12,482 nt of DNA from Candidatus Woesearchaeota archaeon. GTDB taxonomy: Archaea > Nanobdellota > Nanobdellia > Woesearchaeales > GW2011-AR15. Position numbers and translations under genes: made by a program. Shown here piece by piece: positions 7,209 to 12,347 of this stretch; position 1 is the first letter of the stretch; each line of letters opens with the position of its first letter. Below the pieces are notes generated by a model. It was given only the letters and a program-made list of their open reading frames with translations. It was not told where the DNA came from and made no database searches. The stretch covers positions 31,229 through 43,710 of the forward strand of contig JAVZBY010000008.1 of NCBI GenBank assembly GCA_038874655.1, written 5' to 3'.

Positions 7209-7272
7209 ATCTAGTTATAATAGGAAATATTAAAAATATTTAAAAAGGATTTATTTTTCTATTTTATTTAAA

Positions 7273-7386
7273 GCCGGCGTCGCATAATCCGGTATTGCGC
7301 TAGCCTTGAGAGCTGGTCCCGTAAGGGATTCCCGGAAACTTTTACATTTTATGTAAGGTTGGGAAATTCAAATCCGGGCGCCGGCG
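7273..7386 (+). tRNA. tRNA-Ser(UGA) with a 31-nt intron at position 53/54; CCA not encoded
   Basis: Acceptor GCCGGCG/CGCCGGC plus G73, D stem GCA/TGC, anticodon stem CTAGC/GCTGG with loop CT-TGA-GA (anticodon 7307..7309), long variable arm TCCC-GTAA-GGGA, T stem CCCGG/CCGGG. Removing 7336..7366 restores GG-TTCAAAT-CC. Confidence 0.93.
7336..7366 (+). other. Non-canonical tRNA intron (53/54) with relaxed BHB motif
   Basis: Central helix TCCC(7330..7333)/GGGA(7361..7364), 3-nt bulges GG^A and AA^T, and an intron hairpin AACTTTTACAT/ATGTAAGGTT. Confidence 0.85.
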
Positions 7387-7437
7387 CTATTTTTCTATTT
7401 TTTTAATTTTTTTAGTGATTTTTTTTAGAAATAGAAA

Positions 7438-7527
7438 TGGGACCGCCCGGACTTTCGTTTTTTTGATTTCGAACCGGGGTTACTACCACCCCAAGGTAAT
7501 GTGATAGCCAAGCTACACTACGGCCCC
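7438..7527 (-). tRNA. tRNA-Pro(GGG) with a 16-nt intron at position 59/60; CCA not encoded
   Basis: Minus strand reads GGGGCCG TA GTG TAGCTTGGCTAT CAC A TTACC TT-GGG-GT GGTAG TAAC CCCGG TTCGAA[ATCAAAAAAACGAAAG]T CCGGG CGGTCCC A. Confidence 0.93.
7452..7467 (-). other. Non-canonical tRNA intron (59/60) with BHB motif
   Basis: The outer helix is the T stem, the central helix is TTCG/CGAA, and the bulges are AA^A and AG^T. Excision gives the canonical T loop TTCGAAT. Confidence 0.85.
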
Positions 7528-7568: not shown

Positions 7569-10500
7569 TTAATCTTTATGATGTGTTTCAATGTAGATTA
7601 TTATTGATATTAAACCTATAATAAAGATTGTTCCTTCTAAAAAGGTTAGTTTTTTTGGTTCTTTTTCTGTTGGTAGGTTTTTTATTCTTTTAGCAATAGG
7701 CAATAATTTTATTTGTTTTAAACATTCTTCAGATATTTTTTTGTTTGCTTTAAGGTTAAGTTCAAAATCTTTTTCAATGTTTGTTAAGTGCCATGCTATT
7801 ATGGGGTCTTCTTTAATAACTTCATATTCTTTTAATTCAATGTCTAATTCTTTTACATAATTTGCTAGGCATTTTGGTATTTCTAAATAAACTGTTAAGT
7901 TATCAACTTTTTCTTTTGGTTTTATTGTGTTTATTATTTTTGTTTGATTTTCTTCTATGTTGTAGTTTATAGAGCTTTCAATTATCTTTTTTGTGTTTTC
8001 TGCATTTATTAAATCGTTTTTGTTTAATGCTATATCAGTAATAAGTTCGTTTTTTATTGTTATGTTTGTGCAATTATTTTTTTTTATTATGATTTTTTTT
8101 TCTTGGAATATGTTATCACAAATGATTTTTAAGAAATGTTCTCCTGTTGATAGTGTGATTAGTTTTTCAGAGTAAGGATAATTTGTGTTGTCCAATGAAA
8201 TAAGGCAGTTTTCAGGATAATTATAATCAATTTTTATTTTAATTGATTTTGTATTTGAACATGTTTCTAGGTAGTTTTCTGGTTCAAGAATGTTAAAATT
8301 ACTAGGACATAATGCATTACATTGTTGCCATTTGAAGTTTTTACATTCTTGGTAACCATTTACAGAAGGACATTCTGGTTTTATGCAAGATCTTTTTTGA
8401 TTTTCATCTCTACAGCATTCTGCTAATTCATCTATTTGATTATTACAATTGTTATCTAGACCATCACATATTTCTTCTTGAGGATATATAGAGTTTTCAC
8501 ATTGACCCCATTGTCCATTAATGCATGTTTGTATTCCATATTTACAGATTCCTATGTCATTAAATCCACAAATTTTAGTTGAGCCAGTTTGACATGGACA
8601 GTTTTCATCAATATTGCCATCGCAATTATTATCTAATCCATCACATATTTCTTCAGTTGGTTTTAGATTTTTATCTGATTCAATATAGTTTCCATTTACA
8701 CAAATTAAAGTGTTGTTAGAACATATTCCTTTTTCGTTTTTTGAAATGATTAAATTTTCATCAATTAAACCATCGCAATCATTATCTATGTTATCGCATT
8801 TTGTTTCATTTTGCTCATAATCTGGGCATACTAAATTTCCATTTATACATTGAGCATTTTGATTGCACGCACTTTTTATGTTGTTGGATAAAGAGATTAT
8901 TGAGTTAATTTGCAGTATTTCTGAACATTTTTTTGTTTCTTTTATGTTGTTATCAATGAAACCATCGCAATCATTATCTTTGCCATCACAAATTTCGTCT
9001 TTTGGAATAGGACAGCCTTGCCAAATTCCATTTACACATGTTGCTTTTCCAATTGAACATTCTCCTAATAAAAATAATTCATTGCAATTTTTTGTTTGAT
9101 CATTAATGCAATTGCAGTTTTCATCTATTAAGTTATTGCAGTTGTTATCTTTTCCATCACATATTTCAGTTTCAATTTTACATTCGCAGCCATTATTTAT
9201 ATTTAAGTCTAAATCAGCATAACCTTCTATACATTTATTCTGGCAAACTAATCTGTTATTTTCAATAAAAGATAAACAATCTTCATCATTGCAATCTGTT
9301 TTTGAATCGCAATCATCATCTTTGTTGTTGTTGCATATTTCATTTTTTGGCAAAGGACAACCTATCCATTGGTTGTTTTGACATGTTGCATTTCCAATTG
9401 AACATTCTCCAAAAAACAAATCAGAACATTTTTTTTTAAATCCAGAAACACAATTACAACCCTCATCAATCTGAGAATTGCAATTATTATCAATTCCATC
9501 ACATGATTCTATTGCTGTTGGATAAACATATGGATTATTGTCGTTGCAATCTCCTTCAATATCAAACCATTTATCATTGTCATTATCATTTCCAATATTA
9601 AAAGTAGTGCTTACTGTTGTAGTTATTCCTTTATTATCGCAAATAGATGTTTGCCCTGTTGATGTTTCTGTTAATTCTGCAATAAATCTTCCAGGTTTTG
9701 CAGAATCCCATTGAACAGTAAAGGGTATAGGTGTATTATATTGATAGTTTTTGGGCAAAGTTCCAGTTTTTGTTGCAATAACTTGATTATTAGATTGATT
9801 AATTATTCTTAAAGTATAACTAGTATCGAAAAATGTTTCACTAACTAAATTTCCTTTTGTATCACAATTAGTTCCAGTAGTGCTCCAATCTTGATAAGAA
9901 TTTAACTTTTTTCCTGAAAACACTACAGGCTGATTTAAAACAAAATTAGTTGTATCTAATTTAAAATTTTCAACATTTGCAATACAGCCGTCAAATGACT
10001 CTGCTATATACACATTAAAAGTTTTAGAAACAGGAATCATTGTGCTTTGATCACATTTAGGATCTGGAACACTAGAGGTCATTGTTATTATATAATTACC
10101 TGGTTCTGTGTTCTTTGTTGTTTGCCATGTGAATCTAAAAGGATATGATGTTCCAGAATAAATGCCAAACTCTTTTTGCTGTGGAAAACCTAAAACTGAT
10201 GCACTTGAACCTTGTTTCTTTATATCAACAACCATTCTAGTAGTAACATTACGCCAAGGTTTTAATTCTTCTGGAAAATAAATATTTGCAGGATTTGGTG
10301 TAAAAGCACTTGCAGTCTCAGCATCTAAATTTGTGTCTGTTAAAATGGTTAATGGTAATCCTTGCTCTGCGCAACTACTTATGCTCGGTGTAAAATCGGA
10401 TTTGCAGTTGTCTTGCTTATCAAAAATTACTTTTTCTGATGGATATGTGTAAGTTGAATAATAACATGAATAAGTATAAGGTCTTCTAAAACGAAATCTA

Positions 10501-10805
10501 TAATTATTAACAGCATAATAACTAATATATCCATAACTAGTTTCCATACAATCTGGATAGATTAAAGTTAAAGAATTGGAGGATGTTGTTATAGGATTGG
10601 GAACAAACAAATTAGAAATAGGATTTAATTTTACACTTGTACATTCTTGATTTGAACAACTATACCATATAGCCCAAACACTATTTATTTGCTTGTTATC
10701 TTCTGTCTCAAAAGTTAAAGGATAAATTAGTTTTGAATGAACAAAAACTAAATTCAATATTAAAATAACAATAAATAAGATTAGTTTTAATTTTTTAAAA
10801 AACAT
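7569..10805 (-). CDS. Large secreted, C-terminally membrane-anchored Cys/Asp-rich surface protein with MopE-related putative metal-binding repeats
   Basis: N-terminal signal peptide, beta-rich Thr/Ser N-terminal half, seven E-x-C-D-G-x-D-N-x-C-x-x-x-I-D-E-type motifs, and a C-terminal TM helix (GTIFIIGLISIIIYI). Confidence 0.85.
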   Translation of the reverse strand: MFFKKLKLILFIVILILNLVFVHSKLIYPLTFETEDNKQINSVWAIWYSCSNQECTSVKLNPISNLFVPNPITTSSNSLTLIYPDCMETSYGYISYYAVNNYRFRFRRPYTYSCYYSTYTYPSEKVIFDKQDNCKSDFTPSISSCAEQGLPLTILTDTNLDAETASAFTPNPANIYFPEELKPWRNVTTRMVVDIKKQGSSASVLGFPQQKEFGIYSGTSYPFRFTWQTTKNTEPGNYIITMTSSVPDPKCDQSTMIPVSKTFNVYIAESFDGCIANVENFKLDTTNFVLNQPVVFSGKKLNSYQDWSTTGTNCDTKGNLVSETFFDTSYTLRIINQSNNQVIATKTGTLPKNYQYNTPIPFTVQWDSAKPGRFIAELTETSTGQTSICDNKGITTTVSTTFNIGNDNDNDKWFDIEGDCNDNNPYVYPTAIESCDGIDNNCNSQIDEGCNCVSGFKKKCSDLFFGECSIGNATCQNNQWIGCPLPKNEICNNNKDDDCDSKTDCNDEDCLSFIENNRLVCQNKCIEGYADLDLNINNGCECKIETEICDGKDNNCNNLIDENCNCINDQTKNCNELFLLGECSIGKATCVNGIWQGCPIPKDEICDGKDNDCDGFIDNNIKETKKCSEILQINSIISLSNNIKSACNQNAQCINGNLVCPDYEQNETKCDNIDNDCDGLIDENLIISKNEKGICSNNTLICVNGNYIESDKNLKPTEEICDGLDNNCDGNIDENCPCQTGSTKICGFNDIGICKYGIQTCINGQWGQCENSIYPQEEICDGLDNNCNNQIDELAECCRDENQKRSCIKPECPSVNGYQECKNFKWQQCNALCPSNFNILEPENYLETCSNTKSIKIKIDYNYPENCLISLDNTNYPYSEKLITLSTGEHFLKIICDNIFQEKKIIIKKNNCTNITIKNELITDIALNKNDLINAENTKKIIESSINYNIEENQTKIINTIKPKEKVDNLTVYLEIPKCLANYVKELDIELKEYEVIKEDPIIAWHLTNIEKDFELNLKANKKISEECLKQIKLLPIAKRIKNLPTEKEPKKLTFLEGTIFIIGLISIIIYIETHHKD
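8427..9587 (-). repeat. Intragenic array of Cys/Asp-rich motifs (Cu-binding_MopE-like)
   Basis: ESCDGIDNNCNSQIDE, EICNNNKDDDCD, EICDGKDNNCNNLIDE, EICDGKDNDCDGFID, TKCDNIDNDCDGLIDE, EICDGLDNNCDGNIDE and EICDGLDNNCNNQIDE. A DNA repeat is 29/30 identical between 9036..9065 and 9381..9410. Confidence 0.85.
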
Positions 10806-11707: not shown

Positions 11708-11944
11708 ATGAAAGAAATGATATCTCTAACATTAGAAGAAAATTTTTTAAAAGAAATAGATGAGATAGTAAAGACTTATAATTTTAGTAGTAGAACAGAA
11801 TTGATTAGAGCAGCATTAAGAGAAAAAATAGAGGAGTTAAAATTAAAAAATTCTATTATAGCTATATCTAAGTTAAAGGGTATTTCGAAAAAAAAAACGA
11901 CAGAAGAAGATTTAGAAAAAATTAGAGAACTTATTTTTAAATAA
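11708..11944 (+). CDS. CopG/ribbon-helix-helix DNA-binding protein, putative VapB-type antitoxin
   Basis: MISLTLEENFLKEIDEIVKTYNFSSRTELIRAALRE is a typical RHH (NikR-N/CopG) pattern. The protein is 78 aa and adjacent to a PIN gene. Confidence 0.85.
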   Translation: MKEMISLTLEENFLKEIDEIVKTYNFSSRTELIRAALREKIEELKLKNSIIAISKLKGISKKKTTEEDLEKIRELIFK

Positions 11945-12347
11945 TTTCTTCTGGTTTATATGATTTAACTATGTCTTTTAATTCTTTAAAATGTTTATCT
12001 CTTGTAATTAAAATTAAGTTATTATCTCTTGCAACTATAGCATGTAGAGCATCGCCTTTTGGAATATTTCTTTGTTCAGCAATAATTTTAGCTTCATCTT
12101 TTTGTTTATCATTAACATAAACAATTTCTAAAAATTCTTTAAATGGAAATAGCATACCTCTTATTTCTTCTAAGCCATAATTAACCTGCAATTCTTTTTG
12201 TATAAAATCAGTTATAACTATTTTATTTTTTTCTAATATAATTTTTTTAAATAATTCAAATGCATAATCTCCTAAAGGTTCATTTTTATAACCTTTTCTA
12301 TTTTCATATAAATCTATCCAAATAGAGGTATCAATTAGATAATTCAT
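11937..12347 (-). CDS. vapC: PIN-domain ribonuclease, VapC-type toxin
   Basis: YLIDTSIWID, KEL, GDALHAIVA and LITRDKHF contain the conserved acidic PIN active-site residues. Confidence 0.9.
   Translation of the reverse strand: MNYLIDTSIWIDLYENRKGYKNEPLGDYAFELFKKIILEKNKIVITDFIQKELQVNYGLEEIRGMLFPFKEFLEIVYVNDKQKDEAKIIAEQRNIPKGDALHAIVARDNNLILITRDKHFKELKDIVKSYKPEEII

Follow-up and report, generated by a model that had tools for sequence, protein, structure and literature searches.

In archaea, tRNA introns are reported to range from 11 to 129 nt in length, and in the Thermoproteales and other archaea non-canonical introns are listed at positions 20/21, 53/54, 56/57, 59/60 and more (PMC4090602). 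Two pre-tRNAs from the DPANN archaeon ARMAN-2 (Ca. Micrarchaeum acidiphilum) are close to the gene described here. Its pre-tRNA-Cys(GCA) is described as having a 13-nt intron at 59/60 with a relaxed motif (hBH/BHL) that is cut in vitro by an epsilon2 splicing endonuclease (EndA), and its pre-tRNA-Pro(GGG) as having introns at 53/54 and 59/60 with strict hBHBh' motifs (PMC3239211). Relaxed motifs are reported to be cut efficiently by the (alpha-beta)2 and epsilon2 forms of EndA only (PMC6379350), the single-subunit type being inefficient on them (PMC6379350; PMC3239211). L3-bearing alpha4-type EndAs of DPANN archaea have been linked to genomes with many disrupted tRNA genes in a survey that included one Woesearchaeota genome (Kaneta 2018; PMC5829648).

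We analysed a 12,482-nt stretch of DNA (the window) from a member of the Woesearchaeales. It contains a gene that is very probably a functional DPANN tRNA-Pro(GGG) with an intron at 59/60 that is cut by EndA and joined by RtcB, the elbow of the tRNA folding only afterwards. Compared with the ARMAN-2 tRNA-Cys(GCA) as described, this gene shares the intron site, the relaxed motif class, the size class and a DPANN host, but its intron is 3 nt longer and lies in another tRNA. The ARMAN-2 tRNA-Pro(GGG) is the same isoacceptor with the same 59/60 site, and the other position reported for it, 53/54, is also used in our host genome, in Ser(TGA) and Val(CAC); however, the ARMAN-2 gene is described with two strict introns whereas the host gene has one relaxed intron. 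Like the published Thermoproteales-type introns, the intron studied here is at a listed position, has a length within the reported range and is patchily distributed among relatives.

The cloverleaf was read on the minus strand from 7527 to 7438, and the identification as tRNA-Pro(GGG) made in the initial annotation was upheld (Table 1). The gene shows an acceptor stem of 7 bp, a D arm, an anticodon stem of 5 bp and a variable region of 4 nt. The discriminator is A73 and the CCA end is not encoded. The 5-bp T stem (7474-7478 with 7446-7450) encloses 23 nt rather than 7, which agrees with the expanded T loop noted initially. Every stem is intact and rich in G+C, in a genome with 25% G+C. Re-reading the anticodon as TGG shifted the stem and left it without pairing, and a separate Pro(TGG) gene exists.

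Table 1. Coordinates of the tRNA-Pro(GGG) gene, its parts and the neighbouring tRNA gene in the window.
Feature	Position	Strand	Length or basis
tRNA-Pro(GGG) gene	7438..7527	minus	90 nt including the intron; 74 nt once spliced, without CCA
5' exon, tRNA positions 1-59, ending in TTCGAA	7468..7527	minus	sequence, fold, intronless Pro(GGG) genes of relatives
Anticodon GGG in 7-nt loop on 5-bp stem	7490..7492	minus	sequence, fold
16-nt intron at 59/60	7452..7467	minus	motif geometry, fold, covariation across homologous sites
A7 run within intron	7458-7464	minus	sequence
Central helix (4 bp), exon strand TTCG, positions 54-57	7470..7473	minus	fold
Central helix, intron strand CGAA	7454..7457	minus	fold and covariation
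3-nt bulge with 3' splice site	7451..7453	minus	fold; cut predicted after second base (EndA rule)
3' exon: U60, 3' strand of T stem, 3' strand of acceptor stem, A73	7438..7451	minus	sequence
tRNA-Ser(TGA), convergent neighbour	7273..7386	plus	Rfam tRNA 30.5 bits, sequence
31-nt intron at 53/54 of tRNA-Ser(TGA)	7336-7366	plus	boundaries predicted from motif geometry

Minimum free energy and centroid RNA folds of the 90-nt precursor both contained the T stem, a 3-nt bulge, a 4-bp helix between TTCG and CGAA, and a 12-nt loop. The predicted fold had an energy of -33.6 kcal/mol (z -2.63), with 3 of 200 shuffled sequences folding equally well. These folds agree with the earlier proposals that the intron's CGAA pairs with the T-loop TTCG, that the T stem serves as the outer helix and that no more than one T-A pair makes up the inner helix. 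The fold lacks the other 3-nt bulge of a strict hBHBh' motif, with its closing intron helix of at least two pairs. The fold does contain the 4-bp exon-intron central helix and the 3-nt bulge against the exon helix that characterize hBH. In the predicted fold, the intron motif is thus of the relaxed hBH (bulge-helix-loop) type.

Neither standard tRNA search detected the gene. ARAGORN called no tRNA gene in the whole window, at a relaxed score (-ps90) its output was mostly noise, and in the window Rfam at the gathering threshold gave no match to tRNA-Pro(GGG). A permissive Rfam scan matched only the 5' part of the gene, with 15.3 bits. Upon removal of the 16 nt, ARAGORN called a tRNA with a T loop of 7 nt. 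It accepted 84 of the 264 deletion variants, so the exact junction is not fixed by ARAGORN, and placement of the junction at 7468/7451 rests on motif geometry and homologues. With the rule that EndA cuts two bases into each side or bulge of the motif, excision of 7452-7467 is predicted to yield the mature T loop TTCGAAT, the loop proposed initially. The position of the 16-nt intron at 59/60 is likewise supported by the fold and the motif geometry.

Other 16-nt deletions accepted by ARAGORN include one that gives TTCGAGT, which would correspond to a real intron cut one or two bases earlier. TTCGAGT is a normal T loop in the host Val and Asn genes. With such a junction, however, the central helix would move into the T stem and lose its pairing, and the register is fixed at 59/60 by the conserved 3' ending of the intron and a covarying pair across homologous sites. 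We consider a shifted junction very unlikely.

The initial annotation had raised the concern that the insert could be an assembly artefact around the A7 run. Our comparison was made on contigs from 4 of the 9 runs found, none of the 9 being recorded as RNA. One contig (X1) matched the whole stretch with no difference and may be the source of this DNA. Another (X2), from a different study, agrees at every base of 7213-7474, a span that takes in the entire intron, and ends 7 bases past it. The gene lies outside the coverage of run X3, and X2 fails bridging by a 31-base rule. A contig from a third study (X5) covers 7229-7527 and contains the insert; it differs by 14 other letters and 8 gaps, and its copy of the tRNA-Pro(GGG) exons has no listed substitutions. 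One of the gaps is a single base absent at 7465, which would give a 15-nt insert; at a depth of 3 this missing base is possibly an error. The end of X2 so close to the intron, the low depth of X5 and the possible identity of X1 with the source leave some room for an artefact. Against this, X2 is identical across the whole intron, X5 lacks only one base of it, and a 16-nt insert with an end that pairs with the T loop cannot arise from a homopolymer error. The presence of the insert in contigs from two further studies makes an artefact of assembly unlikely; one arising around the A7 run is scarcely credible, and the concern is largely answered.

We looked for the gene and for similar inserts in related genomes. 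The tRNA-Pro(GGG) gene was matched in 25 of 40 relatives. Among the Pro genes parsed from these loci, 10 had inserts of 16-119 nt at 59/60 (one of them being the gene studied here) and 16 had none. In the two same-genus genomes with a Pro(GGG) match (G002 and G003), Pro(GGG) is intronless at 59/60 and has a different anticodon stem, and the Pro(TGG) gene of G002 has an 83-nt insert at 59/60. In a genome of the same family (G004, locus L024), the anticodon stem of a tRNA-Pro(GGG) resembles that of the gene studied here, and the gene has three introns, in the D-loop and at 37/38 and 59/60. The tRNA-Pro(GGG) from another genome of the order (G033, locus L014; 6% contamination) looks bacterial and is probably on a contaminant contig.

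Of the 301 genomes of the order, 193 matched a 59/60 pattern with inserts of 7-37 nt, giving approximately 620 matches in all and up to 12 per genome, compared with approximately 70 matches in 59 genomes for a reversed control pattern (control total tallied by hand). These tallies take in 10 unpublished genomes, and sequence-level claims rest on the others. In 30 loci from the order, ARAGORN called tRNAs at 27 of the 33 matches listed once the insert had been taken out, and at none before. Among the metagenome matches listed, ARAGORN called tRNAs in 89 of 120 after insert removal and 8 before; with a stricter overlap filter, 93 of 123 spliced sequences and none of the unspliced ones were called.

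The pair between position 57 and position -6 of the intron was left free by the search pattern. In 96 of the 115 distinct genes among the matches listed this pair is Watson-Crick (73 A-T, 23 G-C), with 4 G-T pairs and 15 mismatches in the remainder. We give no P value for this covariation as the counts come from related sequences and overstate independence. In these sequences the central helix is clearly kept by pairing across homologous sites. The D/T elbow of a tRNA requires T-loop positions 54-57 to be unpaired with an insert. A tRNA that retained the insert as an enlarged T arm would have these positions paired with it, preventing the elbow, and among the inserts of 16-119 nt in the relatives' Pro genes only the splice-motif bases are conserved. 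We therefore give retention of the insert hardly any credence.

In the Pro(GGG) gene itself CGAAA is repeated, which fits a duplication. As a general explanation, tandem duplication of the palindromic TTCGAA was rejected: loops of the TTCA type, which make up 73 of the 115 distinct genes among the matches listed, pair with a complementary TGAA that is not a repeat. Because of this, selection for pairing would explain the intron ends better than duplication, which may still have been a first step. We also observed a family of 59/60 introns of approximately 27-33 nt with an inner hairpin capped by a second TTCRAA that resembles a copy of the T loop. Such introns occur in different tRNAs and families, both in relatives (L298, L309, L316, L321, L322, L324, L337 and L338) and in metagenomes (L200, L224 and L231), and may have arisen by intron spread between genes or by duplication of the T arm. 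The 59/60 intron, 15 nt long, of an Arg(CCT)-like tRNA from a genome of another family (G271, L277) is nearly identical to the 16-nt Pro(GGG) intron, a likeness that would reflect either shared origin or convergence of a short A-rich sequence.

The description of the intron as minimal did not hold, since 26 genes of relatives have 59/60 introns of 11-15 nt and 11-nt archaeal introns are published. A search for inserts of 6-15 nt gave 49 matches in 42 of the 301 genomes of the order. We examined 46 of these; in 26 the T stem is complete and ARAGORN calls a tRNA once the insert is taken out but not with it in place. Their lengths were 11 nt (one), 12 nt (one), 13 nt (ten), 14 nt (five) and 15 nt (nine). 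The 11-nt intron is in a tRNA-Val (L325), and the ARAGORN call for the gene with the 12-nt intron gave no determined anticodon. The 20 matches that were dropped comprised 3 nested ARAGORN calls at the wrong site and 17 with no call, 2 of which are tRNA-like 13-nt cases with further introns. Pattern matches of 6, 7 and 10 nt were rejected as introns because they fell outside tRNAs or formed the interior of a longer intron. Metagenome tRNA-Pro genes among the matches listed have 59/60 introns of 13, 14 and 15 nt, and the host genome also contains a 13-nt intron at 37/38. In the sample of verified introns of up to 37 nt from the matches listed, 8 of 115 are 15 nt or shorter and 3 of 115 are 16 nt. 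It is fair to say that the 16-nt Pro(GGG) intron is short and lies in the short tail of the distribution.

The host genome assembly (1.26 Mb in 17 contigs, 97% complete) contains 43 tRNA genes by hand annotation, comprising 16 that are intronless and 27 with introns. Eight of the 43 have non-canonical introns that lie within the D-loop or T-arm. These are in the D-loop of Arg(CCT), Leu(GAG) and Lys(CTT), at 53/54 of Ser(TGA) and Val(CAC), and at 59/60 of Pro(GGG), Glu(TTC) and Glu(CTC). The two tRNA-Glu genes (C8:504-609 and C7 at approximately 23120-23234) contain 59/60 introns, 31 and 32 nt long, with a clear sequence similarity to each other. Glu(CTC) has an additional 15-nt intron at 37/38, and TTCA is paired with TGAA in its 59/60 intron. 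No genes for Ala(TGC), Arg(CCG) or Leu(CAG) were found in this 97% complete genome. A tRNA with the anticodon TAT (Ile) and a 37/38 intron is located at C12:8702-8807, and a separate Ile(CAT) gene was not found in the host genome. The 3' end of a tRNA-Ala(CGC) at C4:78404-78540 is repeated 44 nt downstream, resembling a relic integration site.

Intact Pro(TGG) and Pro(CGG) genes are present in the host. A rival possibility is that the Pro(GGG) gene is dead because of an unspliced insertion, with CCC and CCU read by tRNA-Pro(TGG) via extended wobble. The relaxed motif, an EndA that looks like a strict type and the intronless Pro(GGG) genes with a different anticodon stem in the same genus are in keeping with such a loss. 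By contrast, the stems are intact and G+C-rich despite the low G+C content of the genome, the central helix covaries, and the X5 copy of the exons has no listed substitutions. In addition, no second Pro(GGG) or further Glu gene was found among the 43 hand-annotated host tRNA genes. As the only Glu(TTC), Glu(CTC) and Pro(GGG) genes found carry such inserts, the cell must remove them. Thus, we consider a dead gene very improbable and favor a functional tRNA with an intron that is spliced.

In the precursor of this functional tRNA, the T stem would be the outer helix and T-loop positions 54-57 would pair with the 3' end of the intron; the 3' splice site would then lie in a 3-nt bulge and the 5' splice site in a 12-nt loop. 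The host EndA would cut two bases into each side and RtcB, for which the host has a gene (588 bits), would join the exons. The 7-nt T loop TTCGAAT would form and then be open to modification. We infer that the gene is transcribed, that the precursor is cleaved and ligated, where exactly the junction falls and at which stage modification takes place; what we observed is the sequence with its predicted fold, genes for both EndA and RtcB and, at homologous sites, selection acting on the helix. Counterpoints are that the 5' site has no true inner helix and that the EndA resembles a type that is inefficient on relaxed motifs. Modification of the T loop after splicing is plausible because U54-G57 pair with the intron in the predicted precursor and a TrmI-like gene is present in the host. 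The wording that modification must follow splicing was too strong, and the idea would hold equally for any 59/60 intron. A search of the host genome for Trm56 found no match, and a partial Pus10_C match (positions 117-205 of 232) could be Pus10 or Cbf5.

The host has one EndA gene (C1:175050-175676, minus strand), predicted to encode a single-subunit protein of 209 aa with the catalytic triad Y145/H155/K186. Searches of the host genome with PF01974, PF02778, the host EndA itself, a 110-sequence profile and the beta model NF007085 found no beta subunit, although the genome is 97% complete and a very divergent beta could be missed. These searches gave a single match in the host, the next best for the 110-sequence profile being at E 0.17. 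The second, non-catalytic beta gene that defines an (alpha-beta)2 EndA was therefore not found in the host. EndA was matched in 38 of 40 relatives, with a single match above the cut-off in 37, and each of the 4 single-contig relatives has one EndA gene. Of the best 80 EndA relatives in GTDB, most carry the title Woesearchaeota or Nanoarchaeota and many others 'uncultured Methanosarcinales'.

An alignment of 110 EndA sequences, 80 of which were relatives chosen for high similarity, showed that the triad, the acidic L10 residues D194 and E196, Arg179 and Trp206 are kept in all 110. The acidic L10 loop, which serves self-assembly in alpha4 enzymes, is kept in the host EndA, a region that is shorter in the alpha subunit of N. 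equitans. Broad-specificity EndAs of the CSL/ASL type have a loop inserted in the N-terminal part with a conserved Lys. Pairwise alignments with M. kandleri and M. jannaschii revealed no CSL/ASL insertion in the host EndA, and the N-terminal spacing in the CSL/ASL region is 9-10 residues in 109 of the 110 sequences. In L3-loop EndAs of the Nanoarchaea/ARMAN-2 type, a basic loop ahead of the catalytic His is lengthened. The spacing from the catalytic Tyr to His is 10 residues in all 110 sequences, as in M. jannaschii (10); it is 16 in N. equitans, 15 in ARMAN-2 and 8 in PDB 2cv8 and 5x89. From these features the host EndA looks like an alpha4 single-subunit type. It is a single-unit protein whereas the ARMAN-2 EndA is described as a three-unit epsilon2 enzyme with an ASL loop (PMC3239211). 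Like the EndAs in the published survey of Kaneta 2018, it is a single subunit, encoded by a DPANN genome in which many tRNAs are interrupted. However, that survey, as published, presents a correlation on few genomes, and the Tyr-to-His spacing in the host is that of M. jannaschii and less than in N. equitans or ARMAN-2.

The presence of relaxed T-arm introns in the only Glu and Pro(GGG) genes found argues against a narrow strict-BHB specificity for this enzyme. The EndA Trp is reported as typical for (alpha-beta)2 and epsilon2 types in one account (PMC3488258), and its position is described as variable in another (PMC12397907). In our alignment, M. jannaschii EndA has Tyr, not Arg, at the Arg179 column. 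This Tyr, the variable Trp position and the alpha4-type EndAs of Kaneta 2018 weigh against reading too much into the host EndA.

Our searches of the open-access literature turned up neither a biochemical assay of an EndA from Woesearchaeota nor a census of the 59/60 introns of Woesearchaeales. The main text of a bioRxiv Asgard preprint does not mention T-loop, DPANN or Woesearchaeota. From the genome sequences, it seems to us an evenly balanced proposition that 59/60 is a dominant and largely uncatalogued intron site of the Woesearchaeales, with relaxed introns cut by a homotetrameric EndA that has no beta subunit, no CSL/ASL and no long L3. Were this so, it would represent a further route to broad EndA specificity, possibly via the invariant Arg179/Trp206 pair, and would break the rule that alpha4 enzymes cut strict motifs only. 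Should a single-subunit EndA that has none of the specificity loops known so far cut T-loop introns of this relaxed kind, the view of how EndA architecture relates to substrate range would need revising. The 209-aa EndA and the 90-nt Pro(GGG) RNA make a convenient pair for probing EndA specificity.

The 59/60 site is already described and is very common in this lineage, and the Pro(GGG) gene is mainly an annotation catch. ARAGORN and Rfam miss such genes, so that genomes appear short of tRNAs. The order-wide 59/60 pattern and the EndA question matter more than the single gene.

A convergent tRNA-Ser(TGA) gene next to the tRNA-Pro gene was absent from the initial annotation and was also missed by ARAGORN (Table 1). 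The related X2 and X5 copies of this gene differ chiefly within the intron. The protein-coding neighbours in the window are predicted to encode an AI-2E-type membrane protein, a large Cys-rich protein, a glutamate-tRNA ligase and a UMP kinase, and none shows a link to the intron. At 11708-12347 a small ribbon-helix-helix (NikR/CdrS-like) ORF on the plus strand lies beside a PIN/VapC-like ORF on the minus strand; both matches are weak and below the cut-off, and the two are possibly a toxin-antitoxin-type pair. The Cys-rich protein (7569-10805, minus strand) is 1078 aa long and probably exported, with repeated acidic double-disulfide motifs (weak NF033662 match), and its gene ends 41 nt upstream of the tRNA-Pro gene.
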